From assembly GCF_044324785.1 (NCBI RefSeq), contig NZ_CP172127.1: a DNA stretch of 64,000 bases. One strand, written 5' to 3'. Source of the DNA: Escherichia coli. GTDB taxonomy: Bacteria; Pseudomonadota; Gammaproteobacteria; Enterobacterales; Enterobacteriaceae. The notes under the pieces were generated by a model. That model ran no database searches and was not told the origin of the DNA. It saw only the letters and a program-made list of their open reading frames with translations. The translations under genes and the position numbers were made by a program. Positions 20,283-35,125 of this stretch are shown here, piece by piece (position 1 is the stretch's first letter; every line of letters starts with the position of its first letter).

Positions 20283-22411
20283 AATGGCCGATTGCGCTTC
20301 GCGTGATTGCTCTTAAGCCACCATTTAATGGTGTCCCGATCAATGACTCCGCCAGCAGTTTCCAGATCGATAGTCTTACTAAATTCCGGTCCCATATCTC
20401 CGGTTTGCGGATCGAAAAATATTGCACCTATTGAGATGATCGGGGCATCAGGATTTTTTCCCATGGTTTCAAGGTCGATCATTAGATGGTCACACGTCCT
20501 GCTGGTGGATGTGATTTCGTGATGACCGTTCACCTTAATTGAGTGATCTGCCGTCTCGCCAGTTTCATTATCGCTATCGTGATGCTGATTGCCGCCAGCG
20601 TTCTCCTTGTGTGGATGTTCAGCGCCTTCCATTTCCTCCGGATCATCTTCCTGAACTTCAACCTGATACTCTTCATCGAATGTTTCTTGGTATGTTGCGT
20701 CGCCCATCACCGCGCCACAATCAGGGCAGTTGCCGCCGCCGGTCTGACCGCAAGCGGTGCAGACTTTTTCCACTTCCTGTTGCGCCACTGATTCAGGCTG
20801 TTTCGTTTCTGGCTCGTTTTGTAACGCATTTGGGCTGTTTTGTTCCGCTTTTTGGTAGTTCCGTTCCGATTCATGCTGGTTCTGGTTCACAGAATCGCGG
20901 GTCTGGATCCCCTTAACCCATTTCGGATCATTCGGGTCACTAATCCCTTCAACAAATTCACCACGTGATGCAGCAAGCAACTTATCGGCGTCAGGCTGGC
21001 TGATATTGGCTGCCTGCATAATTTTGTTTACTTCGTCAGCGGTAACTTTTATCGGCTCTGGTTGTTCTGAATCTTCAGCGGTATCTACATTTTGCGGTAA
21101 GCCCGTGTATGTGCCATTTTTTCGGGCAAAATATTCTTCTTTTGTGATTTCAGTGGCGCCAGCAGCCAGTGCCTTATCCAGACCAGAAAGTTTGTTTGCG
21201 CGACCGTATTTTTCTCCGTCCTTATCTGCGAAGAGGAAATAGAACGGCCCCTCACGCTCTACAGATGGTTCAGCTTCCGGTGCGGTTTCATTTTTTGGGA
21301 TATCAGATACCTCAGTTTCCACTGCATCAGTTTGTGTTTCTGATGACTTGAGAACATCAACAGTGCCCAGGTCTGTTTCTTCATTCTCAAACACGCCCTT
21401 TGTCGTCAGGTATTCGCAGATATATTTGTTCAGTGCTACGGGATCTTTGTGAATGTCGATCGGACGCTCACGGACAAGGCCAAAAATAGTTTGGCGGTCG
21501 TAGCGAAGGGCATCAGGCTGTTTGCGTATTGATGCCGAGATACGCTTCCAGTCTTCGCGGTCGTTGTCGATAACTTCATTTTTTGCCCAGCGATGGATGC
21601 TGCCGTCAATGTTTCCGGCATCCACATCACCAGGCCAGAGAGCGTAGGCCAGTTCGTCATCCAGTGTTTTCCATGTCTGCTTGTATTCGCGATGAATGGC
21701 AGCAATGACCGGGCTGATTTTTCCTGTTGAATTTTCAGTGTACTGTTGATTGGCTCTGGCGCGGGCGAGATCAACAACAGACGTGTATTTTCCGGTTTCC
21801 TTGCGTTCACCTTCGCGACGTTTTTTCCAGATGCGCATCTCTGCCTGAATTTCGGGCCATTTAGCACCAGGAATACATTTATGCTTAACCCACCCAATGG
21901 CGTGCAACTTAAGCTCCGGATACATGGCGTTAACTTCTGGCATTTTCATCAACGCTTCAACGATATGTCCGTTGAATGTTGCCATGTCTTCCTGCAACAA
22001 TTCCTGTGCGCTAATAACCATATCAACGGTGATGTTTTCACATGTGTCGAACTTAACCATGACAGCGTTCTGTACTTCAGGGGCCAGCTTGTCAAAAGTG
22101 ACGTTCATCGGATCGGATTCAGTCTCAACCGGGACAAAAGAAGCAGACTCCTCATCCCAGCGGTTTTCCTGCATATATTCAGCATCCCATGAATCGAGGG
22201 CAGGGCGGGGTATACCAGGTTTATCCTCGCAGACAATAAATTTATAAGCGCAGTCCTGAGCAGCCGGATAATGTTCCAGGAATTGCCAGTGAAATTTTGC
22301 TCGAGCACGGCGTTCGTCGCCAGCTTCAATGGCTGTGGCTACAGCCACAGCGCCTTCTTCCCTTGTTGCCAGTTCGTCAGGAATAGCGGCGCAAATAAAG
22401 ACTTTACTCAT
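20279..22411 (-). CDS. prophage exonuclease, N-terminal 710 aa (RecE/exodeoxyribonuclease VIII position) ending in an Exo I motif
   Basis: 710-aa ORF with acidic low-complexity middle, Cys4 zinc-ribbon (CTACGQTGGGNCPDCG) and C-terminal MIDLETMG motif. Confidence 0.7.
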   Translation of the reverse strand: MSKVFICAAIPDELATREEGAVAVATAIEAGDERRARAKFHWQFLEHYPAAQDCAYKFIVCEDKPGIPRPALDSWDAEYMQENRWDEESASFVPVETESDPMNVTFDKLAPEVQNAVMVKFDTCENITVDMVISAQELLQEDMATFNGHIVEALMKMPEVNAMYPELKLHAIGWVKHKCIPGAKWPEIQAEMRIWKKRREGERKETGKYTSVVDLARARANQQYTENSTGKISPVIAAIHREYKQTWKTLDDELAYALWPGDVDAGNIDGSIHRWAKNEVIDNDREDWKRISASIRKQPDALRYDRQTIFGLVRERPIDIHKDPVALNKYICEYLTTKGVFENEETDLGTVDVLKSSETQTDAVETEVSDIPKNETAPEAEPSVEREGPFYFLFADKDGEKYGRANKLSGLDKALAAGATEITKEEYFARKNGTYTGLPQNVDTAEDSEQPEPIKVTADEVNKIMQAANISQPDADKLLAASRGEFVEGISDPNDPKWVKGIQTRDSVNQNQHESERNYQKAEQNSPNALQNEPETKQPESVAQQEVEKVCTACGQTGGGNCPDCGAVMGDATYQETFDEEYQVEVQEDDPEEMEGAEHPHKENAGGNQHHDSDNETGETADHSIKVNGHHEITSTSRTCDHLMIDLETMGKNPDAPIISIGAIFFDPQTGDMGPEFSKTIDLETAGGVIDRDTIKWWLKSNHAKRNRPL

Positions 22412-28464: not shown

Positions 28465-29755
28465 ATACAGCGAACTCCATTGGTTTAGTTGGATATTTAC
28501 TGTGCTGGACAAAAACGGTTTGCGGGGAAATCTTAGTTAAGTAGAATGACTGCGGGTGCTTGAGGCTATCTGCCTCGGGCACGAACACCAACGGCAGGTA
28601 GAGAAAAGCCCCAGTTAACATTACGCGTCCTGCAAGACGCTTAACATTAATCTGAGGCCAATTTCATGCCAGACACATGTAGGTTAGCCTCTTACGTGCC
28701 GAAAGGCAAGGAGAAGCAGGCTATTGTTAACACCAAGCTGTAATGTCCCCTTTGAACCATTCTAAAATGTCCCCAGACAATTCTCTGGGGGATTTTTCAT
28801 GACCAAAGAAACTGTTACGATGAGTCATAAGGAACTCCACCGACTTCAGATTATTCAGGAGTCAATTAATCGACATATTACTCAGGAACAAGCTGCGGCA
28901 CGCATTGGCATTTCTATTCGGCAGGTTAAACGTCTGGTGCAACGGTATAGAAATGAAGGGCCTTCTGGTCTGGTTTCCCACCGACGTGGAAAGCGTCCTA
29001 ATAATTCCTTTTCTACTGAATTCAGAGCAACAGTAATTTTACTCCTCAAAGGCCGTTACGCTGATTTTGGACCTACGTTTGCGTGCGAAAAATTGCGCGA
29101 GATACACGGTTTATCTTTATCCGTTGAAACTCTCAGAAAGTGGATGATAGAAGAGGGGGGTATGGCGTGAACGCCGTCGTAAAATTGCCCGTATATATCA
29201 ACGCCGCATGCGACGACCATCTTACGGTGAACTGATCCAGATTGATGGCTCACCTCATGACTGGTTTGAAAATCGAGGCCCCAGATGTACACTGATCGTT
29301 TTCATTGATGATGCCACCAGTGCGTTGATGGCGTTGCGTTTTGTGCCTGCTGAAACAACCCGGGCTTACATGGAAACCCTCCGGGGTTACCTTAATGATC
29401 ATGGCGTACCGCTCGCTCTCTACTCTGATAGACACAGTATATTCAGGGTAAATAACCCAGAGCGGGAAGGTGAGCTGACCCAGTTCACTCGTGCGATAAA
29501 GACACTGGGCATCGAGCCAATCCATGCCAACAGCCCGCAGGCAAAAGGGCGGGTAGAGCGCGCCAATCAGACACTACAGGACAGGCTGGTCAAAGAAATG
29601 CGGCTTCAGAATATCAGTGATATTGAAACAGCAAATGCATGGTTGCCGACCTTTATTGAAGCCTATAACAACCGGTTCGCTACGTCGCCTCGTACTACTG
29701 ATAATGCTCATCTTGATGTGCACCATTCTGAAGAGGAACTGGGTTATATCTTCAG

Positions 29756-29764
29756 CCTACAGGC
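29756..29764. repeat. 9-bp target site duplication (CCTACAGGC), left copy
   Basis: Identical 9-mer immediately flanks both ends of the IS. Confidence 0.8.
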
Positions 29765-30821
29765 GGCTTTGTTGAATAAATCAGATTTCGGGTAAGTCTC
29801 CCCCGTAGCGGGTTGTGTTTTCAGGCAATACGCACGCTTTCAGGCATACCTGCTTTCGTCATTTTGTTCAGCGCTCGTACCAGGGCCATAGCCTCCGCAA
29901 CCTGACCATCGTAGTCACGCAGCGTCAGTGAACCCCCGAACAGCTGTTTTACCCGGTACATCGCCGTTTCCGCTATCGAGCGACGGTTGTAATCTGTTGT
30001 CCATTTCCACCGCGCATTACTCCCGGTCATTCGCTGATTAGCCACTGCACGGTTACGGTCTGCATATTCACCGGGCCAGTAACCCGCACCTTTTCGGGGA
30101 GGGATAAGCGCGCTGATTTTCTTACGCCGCAGTTCATCGTGACATAGCCGGGTATCGTAAGCGCCATCGGCGGCGGCTGACCTGATTTTCCGGTGGGTTT
30201 GCCGGATTAACCCGGGGAAGGCCTCTGAGTCCGTAACGTTGTTCAGCGACAGGTCAGCGCAGATGATTTCATGTGTTTTACTGTCAACGGCGAGATGCAG
30301 CTTACGCCAGATACGGCGGCGTTCCTGGCCATGCTTTTTGACTTTCCACTCGCCTTCACCGAAGACCTTCAGCCCGGTGGAATCAATTACCAGGTGTGCG
30401 ATTTCACCCCGGGTGGGCGTTTTGAAACTGACATTAACCGACTTTGCCCGCCTGCTGACACAGCTGTAATCCGGGCAGCGTAGCGGAACGTTCATCAGAG
30501 AAAAAATGGAATCAATAAAGCCCTGCGCAGCCCGCAGGGTCAGCCTGAATACGCGTTTAATGACCAGCACAGTAGTGATGGCAAGGTCAGAATAGCGCTG
30601 AGGTCTGCCTCGTGAAGAAGGTGTTGCTGACTCATACCAGGCCTGAATAGCTTCATCATCCAGCCAGAAAGTTATGGAGCCACGGTTGATGAGGGCTTTA
30701 TTGTAGGTGGGCCAGTTGGTGATTTTGAACTTTTGCTTTGCCACGGAACGGTCTGCGTTGTCGGGAAGATACGTGATCTGATCCTTCAACTCAGCAAAAG
30801 TTCGATTTATTCAACAAAGCC
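29765..30821 (-). mobile_element. IS903-group insertion sequence (IS5 family), 1057 bp
   Basis: Perfect 18-bp terminal inverted repeats GGCTTTGTTGAATAAATC, 1057-bp length and 9-bp duplication typical of IS903/IS102. Confidence 0.9.
29821..30744 (-). CDS. IS903-type DDE transposase
   Basis: ORF inside the IS with DDE residues and YREK-like signature; probable GTG start giving 307 aa. Confidence 0.85.
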   Translation of the reverse strand: MAKQKFKITNWPTYNKALINRGSITFWLDDEAIQAWYESATPSSRGRPQRYSDLAITTVLVIKRVFRLTLRAAQGFIDSIFSLMNVPLRCPDYSCVSRRAKSVNVSFKTPTRGEIAHLVIDSTGLKVFGEGEWKVKKHGQERRRIWRKLHLAVDSKTHEIICADLSLNNVTDSEAFPGLIRQTHRKIRSAAADGAYDTRLCHDELRRKKISALIPPRKGAGYWPGEYADRNRAVANQRMTGSNARWKWTTDYNRRSIAETAMYRVKQLFGGSLTLRDYDGQVAEAMALVRALNKMTKAGMPESVRIA

Positions 30822-30830
30822 CCTACAGGC
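30822..30830. repeat. 9-bp target site duplication (CCTACAGGC), right copy
   Basis: Direct repeat of 29756-29764. Confidence 0.8.
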
Positions 30831-31642
30831 GAAGCGCGTTCTGTCTAAAAATCTCACTTTCCAGTACAAAAGCAGTGCGTTTCAGGTACGCAGTGAGGGC
30901 CGGGGATATCGACTTAGGCATTCGGTTGTTACTGTATGCGAGAACTTTGACGGTGAAATTAACGTTCTGTATGACGGGAAAGCGCTGGGCTGGGAAAAGT
31001 ATGTTGATGGCCCGGAGCCTATACCACTGGATGATGAAAAGAGTGTCCATGAACGAGTGGATAATGCCCGTATTGATTTACGCTCAAAATACTATGTTAA
31101 ACCTAAAGCTGACCATCCCTGGCTTACGCGCCGAACGCAAAGTCATCAGCAAGTTAAGCCCCCGAAGTTACCTAAAAAGAAGCCTGATCCCGATAAAAAA
31201 GATTGAAACCAAGATCGATTCGGTTGAGTGCATATCCATTCATAGGGTAGATTCTTAAGTCGCGTTTCTGGTGTTCATTTTCGGGTGGTTTGTTACTTGT
31301 TTTACCGGGGATATGCCAGAAACGCGCTGAGTCAGTCTGGGCGGTGCGCGTAATGAGGCGTTATGGTAAATAGCCTATGCTAATGTCCGCTAAGAGCAAG
31401 AAGCGGAAGTTGGCAGTTTTGTGGACTGTCCCCACAAATGTGACTACAGAAATAGTTGCAATTCATAATTGATCATGGGTTGTCAGTTAAACTCGTGGCG
31501 ATTTAAATAGACTAATTGGGAGTGCGTCCATTACTTATATCTTGTAATGTTAACTATCAGAAATGATACAAAGATAATATGTCTTTAAAGAAAAGGCTGA
31601 TGGCGAAAAGTGGCCCGATGAGGGCCACAATACGGCTGTCAC

Positions 31643-31975
31643 TTAGACGTAAATATCAATGGTGCCAGCGGTATTTGTATCGTCTTTTTTCTCTTCTTTT
31701 TTATCAGGCTGAACTGTCGCGTCTTTATTCTTTTTCTCTGCCTGCTGCCTTAACAACTGCTCCAGTTGAGCCCTGAGGCTTTCAATTTGCTTCTGTACCA
31801 ATGCAGCCATTTCTTTTTTCTGCTGTGTCGTCATCCCCTCTTCCGATGAGATTTTCCCAAGCTTTTCAGTCAGCACCTGAATTTGTCTTGTGATTTTGGC
31901 TATTTCTGATGTTCCTTCCGGGGCGGAGTTGTTTGAAATAACGGTTGAGGTATTTCCCTGAATTGTGACAGACAT
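31643..31975 (-). CDS. flxA: FlxA (sigma-28-dependent prophage protein)
   Basis: 110 aa MSVTIQGNTSTVISNNSAPEG... matches recalled FlxA. Confidence 0.9.
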   Translation of the reverse strand: MSVTIQGNTSTVISNNSAPEGTSEIAKITRQIQVLTEKLGKISSEEGMTTQQKKEMAALVQKQIESLRAQLEQLLRQQAEKKNKDATVQPDKKEEKKDDTNTAGTIDIYV

Positions 31976-31999
31976 AGATTTCTCCTTTTAAAAAAGCAC

Positions 32000-32026
32000 T
32001 ATCGGCATGCACAAAAAAATCTTTAA
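32000..32026 (-). promoter_or_regulatory. sigma-28 (FliA) promoter for flxA
   Basis: Minus strand TAAAGATT-N11-GCCGATAG against consensus TAAAGTTT-N11-GCCGATAA, about 25 bp upstream of the flxA start. Confidence 0.65.
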
Positions 32027-32177
32027 TCGTATTTCTTGTGTCATTAATTGTTTGATGTTCAGATTGTTTTCCTCGCGGGCTGGCGCGCCTCAGAAAGTAA
32101 AGCTTGTTGACAGGGGTAAACGTTCGGCAATAATTTTCTGCCGCATGCGGGTGTTGCATAAAACGTGCTACGTTCCT

Positions 32178-32483
32178 TTATCGACAGGTCAGGTCACCGC
32201 TCACCCGCCGACGAGAAAGCAACACTGACATGCTAAAGCAAAAAATAGATGAATAAGTTGAGTTGTGCATATGTAGCCTGACCGTCACAAAGTATATGGT
32301 GTCTGTACCAGTAAGATGATGGCCGGACTCTTTAAAAACGAGCTGACCTGCACAATACAGGATGGACTTAGCAATGGCTGCTCCTGGCACAAAGCGGACA
32401 GTGATCACCGTTCTTACGACTACTTTCTGACTTCCTTCGTGACTTGCCCTAAGCATGTTGTAGTGCGATACTTGTAATGACAT
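32178..32483 (-). CDS. ydfV: hypothetical protein at the YdfV position
   Basis: 101-aa ORF between flxA and relB. Confidence 0.55.
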   Translation of the reverse strand: MSLQVSHYNMLRASHEGSQKVVVRTVITVRFVPGAAIAKSILYCAGQLVFKESGHHLTGTDTIYFVTVRLHMHNSTYSSIFCFSMSVLLSRRRVSGDLTCR

Positions 32484-32507
32484 TTGTAATTACAAGAGGT
32501 GTAAGAC

Positions 32508-32747
32508 ATGGGTAGCATTAACCTGCGTATTGACGATGAACTTAAAGCGCGTTCTTACGCCGCGCTTGAAAAAATGGGTGTAACTCCTTCTGAAGCGCTT
32601 CGTCTCATGCTCGAGTATATCGCTGACAATGAACGCTTGCCGTTCAAACAGACACTCCTGAGTGATGAAGATGCTGAACTTGTGGAGATAGTGAAAGAAC
32701 GGCTTCGTAATCCTAAGCCAGTACGTGTGACGCTGGATGAACTCTGA
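32508..32747 (+). CDS. relB: RelB antitoxin
   Basis: 79 aa MGSINLRIDDELKARSYAALEKMGVTPSEALR... matches recalled RelB. Confidence 0.9.
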   Translation: MGSINLRIDDELKARSYAALEKMGVTPSEALRLMLEYIADNERLPFKQTLLSDEDAELVEIVKERLRNPKPVRVTLDEL

Positions 32748-33034
32748 TGGCGTATTTTCTGGATTTTGACGAGCGGGCACTAAAGGAATGGCGAAAGCTG
32801 GGCTCGACGGTACGTGAACAGTTGAAAAAGAAGCTGGTTGAAGTACTTGAGTCACCCCGGATTGAAGCAAACAAGCTCCGTGGTATGCCTGATTGTTACA
32901 AGATTAAGCTCCGGTCTTCAGGCTATCGCCTTGTATACCAGGTTATAGACGAGAAAGTTGTCGTTTTCGTGATTTCTGTTGGGAAAAGAGAACGCTCGGA
33001 AGTATATAGCGAGGCGGTCAAACGCATTCTCTGA
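32747..33034 (+). CDS. relE: RelE mRNA-interferase toxin
   Basis: 95 aa MAYFLDFDERALKEWRKLGSTVREQLKKKL..., start overlaps the relB stop. Confidence 0.9.
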   Translation: MAYFLDFDERALKEWRKLGSTVREQLKKKLVEVLESPRIEANKLRGMPDCYKIKLRSSGYRLVYQVIDEKVVVFVISVGKRERSEVYSEAVKRIL

Positions 33035-33105
33035 ACCAAAGCATGACATCTCTGTTTCGCACCGAAGGTGACACTTCTGCTTTGCGTTGACAGGAGAAGC
33101 AGGCT

Positions 33106-33261
33106 ATGAAGCAGCAAAAGGCGATGTTAATCGCCCTGATCGTCATCTGTTTAACCGTCATAGTGACGGCACTGGTAACGAGGAAAGACCTCTGCGAGGT
33201 ACGAATCCGAACCGGCCAGACGGAGGTCGCTGTCTTCACAGCTTACGAACCTGAGGAGTAA
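33106..33261 (+). CDS. hokD: Hok-family membrane toxin HokD (RelF)
   Basis: Manual translation MKQQKAMLIALIVICLTVIVTALVTRKDLCEVRIRTGQTEVAVFTAYEPEE, 51 aa, below the ORF-track cutoff. Confidence 0.85.
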   Translation: MKQQKAMLIALIVICLTVIVTALVTRKDLCEVRIRTGQTEVAVFTAYEPEE

Positions 33262-33477
33262 GAGACCCGGCGGGGGAGAAATCCCTCGCCACCTCTGATG
33301 TGGCAGGCATCCTCAACGCACCCGCACTTAACCCGCTTCGGCGGGTTTTTGTTTTTATTTTCAACGCGTTTGAAGTTCTGGACGGTGCCGGAATAGAATC
33401 AAAAATACTTAAGTAGCGCGCAGGGATAAGAGGGATGGTCCCTTAAAGGGGAGAGCTAATTATCCGGAAGGATTCTG

Positions 33478-33729
33478 ATGATGAACATCGAAGAACTGCG
33501 TAAAATTTTTTGTGAAGATGGCCTCTATGCTGTGTGCGTTGAAAATGGAAATCTTGTTAGTCATTACCGCATTATGTGTTTGCGAAAGAATGGGGCTGCG
33601 TTAATTAATTTTGTGGATGCTCGGGTCACGGACGGATTTATCTTGCGCGAAGGTGAGTTTGTCACTTCATTACAGGCATTGAAAGAGATCGGAATAAAAG
33701 CTGGCTTTTCTGCTTTTTCAGGAGAATAA
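33478..33729 (+). CDS. rem: Rem protein (function unknown)
   Basis: 83-aa ORF after relBE-hokD as in Qin. Confidence 0.7.
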   Translation: MMNIEELRKIFCEDGLYAVCVENGNLVSHYRIMCLRKNGAALINFVDARVTDGFILREGEFVTSLQALKEIGIKAGFSAFSGE

Positions 33730-33795
33730 ACTCATCTACAATCTTGCGCGGGGCTGAACTCCCGCTGAGTAACACCGTGCCACCGGAGAAAACCG

Positions 33796-34074
33796 ATGGC
33801 ACGCAACGCAAAATATTACAATTCTGATAATTCGCCCGTTCTTGCCTGCACGCACGGGCGGTATTCTCACGCATTCAAGTCTGAATGGTTCCAGCACCCT
33901 CCATGCACTGCAGAACAGGCCGAATGGCTGATTCATTCTTACCGCAGGCGCGGGTTCGAGGTTAAGAAAGCTCTCAGTCTCGACTATCGGCACTGGATAA
34001 TCTCTGTCAGGCTGCCTTATTCCGAACGCCCACCACGTGCGTCCCGCACTTTCCAGCAACGGATCTGGAGGTAA
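33796..34074 (+). CDS. hypothetical ORF, possibly the frameshifted 5-prime part of ydfU
   Basis: 92-aa ORF overlapping the next ORF start by 38 nt in another frame. Confidence 0.35.
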   Translation: MARNAKYYNSDNSPVLACTHGRYSHAFKSEWFQHPPCTAEQAEWLIHSYRRRGFEVKKALSLDYRHWIISVRLPYSERPPRASRTFQQRIWR

Positions 34075-35125
34075 CGTGCGGGTATTACTTAGACCTGTTC
34101 TGGTGCCTGAGCTTGGGCTGGTGGTCCTTAAGCCGGGCCGTGAATCCATACAGATATTTCATAATCCTCGAGTGCTGGTGGAACCGGAACCAAAAAGCAT
34201 GCGTAATCTGCCATCCGGAGTCGTTCCTGCCGTTCGCCAGCCGCTGGCGGAAGACAAAACATTGCTGCCGTTTTTTAGTAACGAACGGGTGATTCGTGCT
34301 GCTGGCGGCGTTGGCGCATTGTCCGACTGGCTATTACGTCATGTTACATCCTGCCAGTGGCCTAATGGCGATTACCATCACACTGAAACAGTCATTCACC
34401 GTTATGGTACCGGCGCAATGGTGTTGTGCTGGCACTGCGACAACCAACTGCGTGACCAGACATCGGAATCACTGGAGCTGCTTGCTCAACAAAATCTGAC
34501 AGCATGGGTGATTGACGTCATCCGTCACGCAATAAGCGGTACGCAGGAGCGGGAATTATCTTTGGCTGAATTATCCTGGTGGGCGGTCTGCAATCAGGTG
34601 GTGGATGCACTACCTGAGGCTGTATCGCGTCGTTCGCTGGGATTACCAGCGGAAAAAATCTGCTCGGTGTACCGCGAAAGCGACATCGTACCGGGAGAGC
34701 AGACCGCCACCAGCATATTGAAACAACGCACAAAAAATCTTGCACCGTTGCCTTACGCCCACCAGCAACAAAAATCACCACAGGAAAAGACGGTGGTAAG
34801 CATCACCGTTGATCCAGAGTCTCCGGAATCTTTCATGAAGCTGCCTAAACGTCGCCGCTGGGTTAAGGAGAAATACACACGTTGGGTTAAGACACAGCCG
34901 TGTGCTTGCTGCGGTATGCCAGCCGACGATCCGCATCATCTGATTGGTCACGGGCAGGGCGGAATGGGAACAAAAGCACATGATCTCTTTGTGTTGCCTT
35001 TGTGCAGAAAGCATCACAACGAGCTGCATACGGATACAGTGGCATTTGAAGATAAGTATGGCTCCCAACTGGAGCTGATATTTCGTTTTATCGATCGCGC
35101 GCTGGCAATTGGCGTACTGGCGTAA
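34037..35125 (+). CDS. ydfU: DUF968/HNH-like phage protein YdfU
   Basis: 362 aa with C-terminal Cys/His cluster (CACCGMPADDPHHL...CRKHHNELH). Confidence 0.65.
   Translation: MRPALSSNGSGGNVRVLLRPVLVPELGLVVLKPGRESIQIFHNPRVLVEPEPKSMRNLPSGVVPAVRQPLAEDKTLLPFFSNERVIRAAGGVGALSDWLLRHVTSCQWPNGDYHHTETVIHRYGTGAMVLCWHCDNQLRDQTSESLELLAQQNLTAWVIDVIRHAISGTQERELSLAELSWWAVCNQVVDALPEAVSRRSLGLPAEKICSVYRESDIVPGEQTATSILKQRTKNLAPLPYAHQQQKSPQEKTVVSITVDPESPESFMKLPKRRRWVKEKYTRWVKTQPCACCGMPADDPHHLIGHGQGGMGTKAHDLFVLPLCRKHHNELHTDTVAFEDKYGSQLELIFRFIDRALAIGVLA

Follow-up and report, generated by a model that had tools for sequence, protein, structure and literature searches.

The sigma-28 promoter of the prophage gene flxA in Escherichia coli and its counterparts upstream of chromosomal FlxA-like genes

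How does a gene carried by a phage come to be read by a sigma factor of the host flagellar regulon, and is such control peculiar to the phage copy or a trait of the gene family to which it belongs? These questions are raised by flxA, a small gene on the minus strand of the 64,000-nucleotide stretch of E. coli DNA analysed here, which is referred to as the window. A sequence-only reading of the window had proposed that flxA is driven by a near-perfect sigma-28 (FliA) promoter about 25 bp upstream, that the gene lies inside a prophage and that a hairpin terminator follows it. The segment is almost certainly the flxA transcription unit of an E. coli Qin-type lambdoid prophage, made up of a sigma-28 promoter, a short leader, a gene of 110 codons and a probable intrinsic terminator. 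Its features, in the direction of transcription, are the following.

32018..32025, minus strand: sigma-28 -35 element TAAAGATT, matching the consensus TAAAGTTT at 7 of 8 positions and equal to the published K-12 flxA FliA motif
32007..32017, minus strand: 11-nt spacer TTTTTGTGCAT, whose length is kept and whose sequence has diverged in homologues of 65-87% identity
31999..32006, minus strand: sigma-28 -10 element GCCGATAG, matching the consensus GCCGATAA at 7 of 8 positions, with the CGA core; CCGATA is invariant in the homologue alignment
31989..31993, minus strand: expected transcription start zone, predicted from the usual sigma-28 geometry (about 6-10 nt past the -10 element), which would leave a leader of about 15-18 nt
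31982..31986, minus strand: Shine-Dalgarno sequence AGGAG, 6 nt ahead of the ATG and invariant in the homologue alignment
31643..31975, minus strand: flxA coding sequence, 110 aa, FlxA-like protein (PF14282), a predicted helical hairpin with disordered termini
31606..31628, minus strand: putative intrinsic terminator identified by folding, with a 7-bp stem GUGGCCC/GGGCCAC (6 G-C pairs), a 5-nt loop UCAUC and UUUU

The promoter stands out clearly from the rest of the window. The arrangement TAAAGATT-N11-GCCGATAG (32025..31999, minus strand) agrees with the consensus TAAAGTTT-N11-GCCGATAA at 14 of 16 positions, with one deviation in each element and exactly 11 nt between the octamers. It is the sole match with two or fewer mismatches on both strands of the 64-kb window, and dinucleotide-preserving shuffles of the window contain such matches at a mean of 0.05 per window. 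A position weight matrix for FliA, made from the 24 ChIP-seq sites with a fold-above-threshold value greater than 4 (PMC4183435) and with flxA left out, ranks the same site first in the window at 21.9 bits, while the training sites themselves span 8.8-29.4 bits and the best score of a shuffled window averages 14.4 bits (sd 1.8). The near-perfect minus-strand promoter of the sequence-only reading is therefore borne out, and its distance of about 25 bp was accurate: 23 nt were measured from the -10 octamer to the flxA ATG at 31975, an interval that includes the Shine-Dalgarno sequence.

Could such a motif be a chance match, with flxA transcribed instead by read-through from ydfV or from a sigma-70 promoter? 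Shuffling leaves some room for coincidence, as 5 of the 100 shuffles contained a single match with two or fewer mismatches and one shuffled window reached 24.6 bits, the maximum and a value above that of the flxA site. In addition, ydfV lies upstream of flxA on the same strand. However, no sigma-70-like site was found on the minus strand between 31300 and 32400, and members of the protein family keep both the motif and its spacing from the ATG. More directly, the same promoter has been examined experimentally in E. coli K-12. The 28-mer TAAAGATTTTTTTGTGCATGCCGATAGT is base-for-base the same in MG1655 and in phage PhiR42_1, and it is the flxA FliA motif given in Table 2 of Fitzgerald et al. 2014 (PMC4183435). 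In that study FliA was cross-linked at the exact motif, with a ChIP-seq signal 16 fold above threshold, which is moderate beside the 110 of fliC, and normalised flxA mRNA fell from 280 in motile MG1655 to 2 in ΔfliA, a difference marked as significant (PMC4183435). Furthermore, purified sigma-28 holoenzyme selects the ydfV>flxA spacer in vitro (PMC5493296). Against this body of data, a chance match is extremely improbable.

Other published measurements point in the same direction. Microarrays showed flxA decreased 28.4-fold in ΔfliA and increased 8.2-fold 5 min after FliA induction (Zhao et al. 2007, PMC1935009), and the first report of the gene describes it, in its title, as FliA-dependent and dispensable for motility development (Ide & Kutsukake 1997, Gene 199:19-23). 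Expression data of this kind cannot by themselves separate direct from indirect control, so that FliA might act on flxA through a FliA-induced regulator such as FliZ. This route is hardly credible: ChIP-seq places FliA on the motif itself (PMC4183435), the genomic-SELEX peak in the ydfV>flxA spacer was obtained with reconstituted sigma-28 holoenzyme and no other factors (Shimada et al. 2017, PMC5493296), and the near-consensus sigma-28 sequence occupies a position suited to flxA. Direct control by FliA, as the sequence-only reading had proposed, is thus supported by published ChIP-seq, ΔfliA mRNA and SELEX data on the identical K-12 sequence. The comparison of fliA+ and fliA- backgrounds that it had suggested as a check has been published more than once for this sequence, and nearly all flxA mRNA proved to depend on FliA. 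The flxA sigma-28 promoter is already known, being identical in sequence to one that has been published and validated by experiment, and since the fliA+ versus fliA- test is in print for the same 28-mer, the promoter finding itself is nothing new.

How would this promoter place flxA in time? FliA-RNA polymerase recognises TAAAGATT-N11-GCCGATAG and would start transcription at about 31989-31993, producing a leader of some 15-18 nt that would carry the Shine-Dalgarno sequence, and the transcript would end at the hairpin downstream of the gene. FlgM keeps FliA inactive until the hook-basal body is complete, and flxA should for this reason behave as a late flagellar gene. It would be switched on only at the late flagellar stage, once FlhDC has induced FliA and FlgM has been exported, and its expression would be independent of the lysis-lysogeny or repressor circuit of the phage.

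The downstream end of the unit is less sharply defined than its upstream end. A hairpin begins 14 nt past the flxA stop codon, spans 31628-31610 and is followed by UUUU at 31609-31606; the 56-nt segment that bears it has a folding energy of -18.1 kcal/mol (z = -2.7 against shuffles). A Rho-independent terminator is usually taken to consist of a GC-rich stem-loop with 5-6 or more U directly behind it, and the U-tract of the flxA hairpin is 4. A consensus terminator scan passed over the hairpin, as its tail has 4 T in 8 where at least 5 of 8 are required, and an Rfam search of 30500-34500 (E <= 0.1) returned nothing at flxA. The hairpin is the same in MG1655 and PhiR42_1 and is missing from the 65-87% identical homologues outside the E. 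coli/Qin lineage. We regard it as a putative intrinsic terminator on the strength of its predicted fold. The hairpin terminator announced by the sequence-only reading is structurally present with a weak U-tract, and it sits just outside the interval 31643-32026 that this reading had delimited.

The prophage that surrounds flxA can be placed by alignment. The segment 31022-38380 is the reverse complement of MG1655 1,640,000-1,647,358 at 99.88% identity, with 9 mismatches in all, 0 of them in the promoter and 2 within flxA. The MG1655 counterpart lies inside the annotated cryptic prophage Qin, where the ORF is annotated as flxA (b1566). Over a longer range, window 18246-64000 aligns with the complete 48.7-kb lambdoid phage PhiR42_1 (PV340562.1, from E. 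coli ECOR13) in six collinear blocks of 96-99% identity. Genes kept here and lost from K-12 Qin include the cII, O, LygF and methyltransferase genes and the whole late head/tail region. To judge from these alignments, the Qin-type lambdoid prophage in the window is nearly complete, much more so than K-12 Qin. Collinearity with K-12 Qin and with PhiR42_1 confirms that flxA lies within a prophage.

Within this prophage, flxA and the upstream dubious ORF ydfV are flanked by the cro-cII-O replication block on one side and the relBE-hokD-rem-ydfU-Q block on the other, and both are read against the direction of rightward early transcription. The same orientation is found in PhiR42_1, where flxA is annotated 'FliA regulated' and runs counter to cro, cII, O and Q. 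The G+C content of the flxA unit is 39-43%, and that of parts of its flanks is about 50-56%. The unit is a self-contained 'moron', consisting of a sigma-28 promoter, one gene and a probable terminator and set between the O/replication and Q/lysis modules.

The surroundings of flxA hold several further elements. The ydfV ORF (32178-32483, minus strand) encodes 101 aa and matches no Pfam or PHROG family, and its status as a real gene is doubtful. With just 24 nt between its start codon and that of the divergent relB (32508), the 5' end of ydfV must share sequence with the relBE control region. The ydfV-flxA spacer contains a near-consensus sigma-70-like promoter, TTGACA-16-AATAAT (11/12), at 32107-32134 on the plus strand, which is directed away from flxA, antisense to ydfV and toward relBE about 370 nt downstream. 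Just downstream of hokD, at 33270-33351 (plus strand), lies the only hit of the Rfam search: the Hfq-binding sRNA isrK, known from a Salmonella prophage, is matched there at 25.1 bits (E = 0.016), short of the gathering score of 50. On the other side, about 0.8 kb downstream of flxA, an IS5-family element of about 1,056 bp occupies approximately 29766-30821 (ORF 29821..30789, minus strand). Its transposase matches NCBIfam NF033579 at 357 bits, and its size is IS903-like; IS5 proper was ruled out as the adjacent transposase, the insertion being only about 1,056 bp and the model match being the IS5-family NF033579. The element lies within what remains of an ISNCY-family transposase gene (28799-29795 and 30733-31206) and is missing at the corresponding site in both PhiR42_1 and K-12. 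Elsewhere in the prophage, the second-best sigma-28 matrix score of the window belongs to TCCAGTCTTCGCGGTCGTTGTCGATAAC (21547-21574, plus strand; 18.8 bits against the shuffle mean of 14.4), antisense within the exodeoxyribonuclease VIII (recE-like) gene. The region of TCCAGTCTTCGCGGTCGTTGTCGATAAC is absent from K-12, which puts it outside the published FliA ChIP-seq coverage.

What kind of protein does this promoter serve? The window FlxA is identical to K-12 FlxA (b1566) at 108 of 110 residues and scores 54.1 bits on PF14282 (gathering cut-off 26.3; residues 7-101 covered), which together with the K-12 annotation bears out the identification of the downstream gene as flxA. It also matches phrog_11044 (E = 1.5e-71), and no NCBIfam model matches it. 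The two differences are R68 and K84 in the window (31774 and 31726) versus W68 and E84 in K-12 MG1655. No other member of the 18-sequence FlxA alignment has W at position 68, and the K-12 W68 allele therefore appears to be derived. An AlphaFold2 model computed with an 18-sequence alignment predicts two helices, 24-42 and 50-86, between disordered ends (mean pLDDT 62.6), and a Foldseek comparison of this model with the PDB returned no match with E below 1. As the model is a generic helical hairpin with no PDB match at E < 1, we draw no functional inference from it. FlxA was still among the uncharacterised Qin genes of the E. coli 'y-ome' in 2024. Of 5,426 complete E. coli genomes, 1,203 carry the 901-bp flxA region at an identity of at least 95%.

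Looking beyond E. coli, is sigma-28 control confined to the prophage copy? Homologues of 65-87% identity, from Enterobacter and from metagenomes, share the pattern TAAA...-N11-.CCGATA., with a diverged spacer sequence, and also the Shine-Dalgarno sequence, and promoter-bearing homologues of 65% identity were found in non-phage-looking contexts. A profile search over one genome per species, using as the profile the narrower alignment (A3), whose distant relatives are only 26-44% identical to Qin FlxA, returned 80 FlxA-like loci (labelled L011-L090, e.g. L037:3001-3336 and L055:3001-3330) in many genera, including Citrobacter, Enterobacter, Kluyvera, Buttiauxella, Pantoea, Erwinia and Brenneria. 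The same neighbour genes surround 69-73 of the 80 loci. By NCBIfam these are gltX, xapA, a convergent LysR-family regulator in the yfeR position and ligA, and an ORF for a membrane protein of 331 aa occupies the position of K-12 yfeH. The order gltX-(xapA)-[flxA-like]-yfeR-yfeH-ligA is a core chromosomal, syntenic locus. The gltX-ligA slot of E. coli K-12 holds yfeN and no FlxA-like gene.

The promoter accompanies the gene at this locus. The [CT]CGATA core occurs within 70 nt upstream of 78 of the 80 FlxA-like genes and ends 27-33 nt from the ATG in 74 of these 78; the full bipartite sigma-28 pattern is present in 74 of the 80 upstream regions. Background 70-nt chunks from the same loci contain the core in 3.4% of cases and the bipartite pattern in 0.16%. 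Likewise, 75% of the FlxA-like upstream regions reach at least 12 bits on the FliA matrix, versus 0.6% of the background chunks. Exceptions to the sigma-28 pattern are L082 (Pectobacterium versatile) and L083, from a Burkholderiaceae MAG. As the promoter is found in 74-78 of 80 chromosomal relatives, sigma-28 control is a trait of the family rather than a peculiarity of the prophage copy. A search of the available literature found no paper on the regulation of the FlxA-like (PF14282) family.

Two histories could have led to the present arrangement: the promoter came with a captured gene, or it arose de novo in the prophage as the phage evolved to sense host motility. For a separate origin it can be said that the Qin-type FlxA is only 26-44% identical to 14 more distant relatives of the chromosomal type (alignment A2), that 24 nt separate the end of CGATA from the ATG in flxA versus 27-33 nt in the chromosomal genes, and that the flxA -35 element has TAAAG where most chromosomal copies have TCAAG. 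Nevertheless, a de novo origin would leave the same promoter to be explained in nearly all chromosomal members, at a syntenic core locus and in genera including Citrobacter, Enterobacter, Pantoea, Erwinia and Brenneria, as well as before the 65% identical homologues outside recognisable phage contexts. Common ancestry of gene and promoter is the more economical explanation, and we consider the de novo origin unlikely. Most likely, and most simply, flxA and its promoter were taken up together by a lambdoid phage from a chromosomal FlxA-like gene, where the direction from chromosome to phage is inferred solely from the distribution of the genes.

What, then, does flxA do for its host or its phage? 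The promoter finding itself changes nothing here, as flxA has been known since 1997 as a non-flagellar FliA target and has been re-confirmed genome-wide; what is added is solely that sigma-28 control extends through the family at a syntenic chromosomal locus. A fixed-distance sigma-28 promoter in about 80 Enterobacterales species argues for a real, motility-linked role of FlxA, and flxA is a member of the host regulon that is carried by a phage with its regulatory signal intact. In the broader proposal, FlxA-like proteins are ancestral and conserved late members of the sigma-28 flagellar regulon across motile Enterobacterales, encoded at the core gltX-yfeR-ligA locus, and in about one-fifth of sequenced E. 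coli strains the gene is present only as a lambdoid-phage moron captured with its promoter. The strict conservation of the promoter would imply a role connected with late steps of flagellar assembly or with the motile state, even though E. coli does not need its copy for motility to develop. We consider this proposal, taken as a whole, to be evenly balanced between right and wrong. More speculatively, FlxA could perhaps be a small secreted or flagellum-associated coiled-coil protein.

The flxA unit can be compared with several known systems. Closest is flxA of K-12 MG1655 (b1566, Qin), which has the identical 28-nt promoter and hairpin and the same neighbours ydfV, relBE and hokD, whereas the prophage of the window is far more complete and carries the IS5-family insertion about 0.8 kb downstream of flxA. 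With the canonical class 3 promoters of tar, fliC, tsr, flgMN and yhjH, flxA shares the bipartite TAAAGTTT-N11-GCCGATAA architecture, and its 21.9 bits fall within the range of 8.8-29.4 spanned by the ChIP-defined training sites; unlike them, it is phage-borne and falls outside the structural, chemotaxis and regulatory genes of the flagellar system.

Autonomous cassettes in phage genomes provide a second point of reference. The bor and lom genes of phage lambda are lambdoid phage 'morons', that is, autonomous promoter-gene-terminator cassettes that stand outside the phage regulatory circuit. The flxA cassette resembles them in being autonomous, differently oriented and lower in G+C than parts of its flanks, but at its promoter an alternative sigma factor of the host takes the place of sigma-70. 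Another FliA ChIP site in a cryptic prophage is (yafY)ykfB in CP4-6, where the downstream gene is partly FliA-dependent. In that case the promoter is intragenic and the values are 118 vs 42, whereas the flxA promoter is intergenic and its transcript drops about 140-fold (PMC4183435). Finally, the chromosomal FlxA-like genes share with flxA the architecture of PF14282-type proteins (an MxxTI N-terminus, a central coiled coil and a C-terminal IDIYV/I) and a sigma-28 promoter at a fixed distance; they differ from it in being only 26-44% identical to Qin FlxA and in occupying a core-genome locus rather than a prophage.
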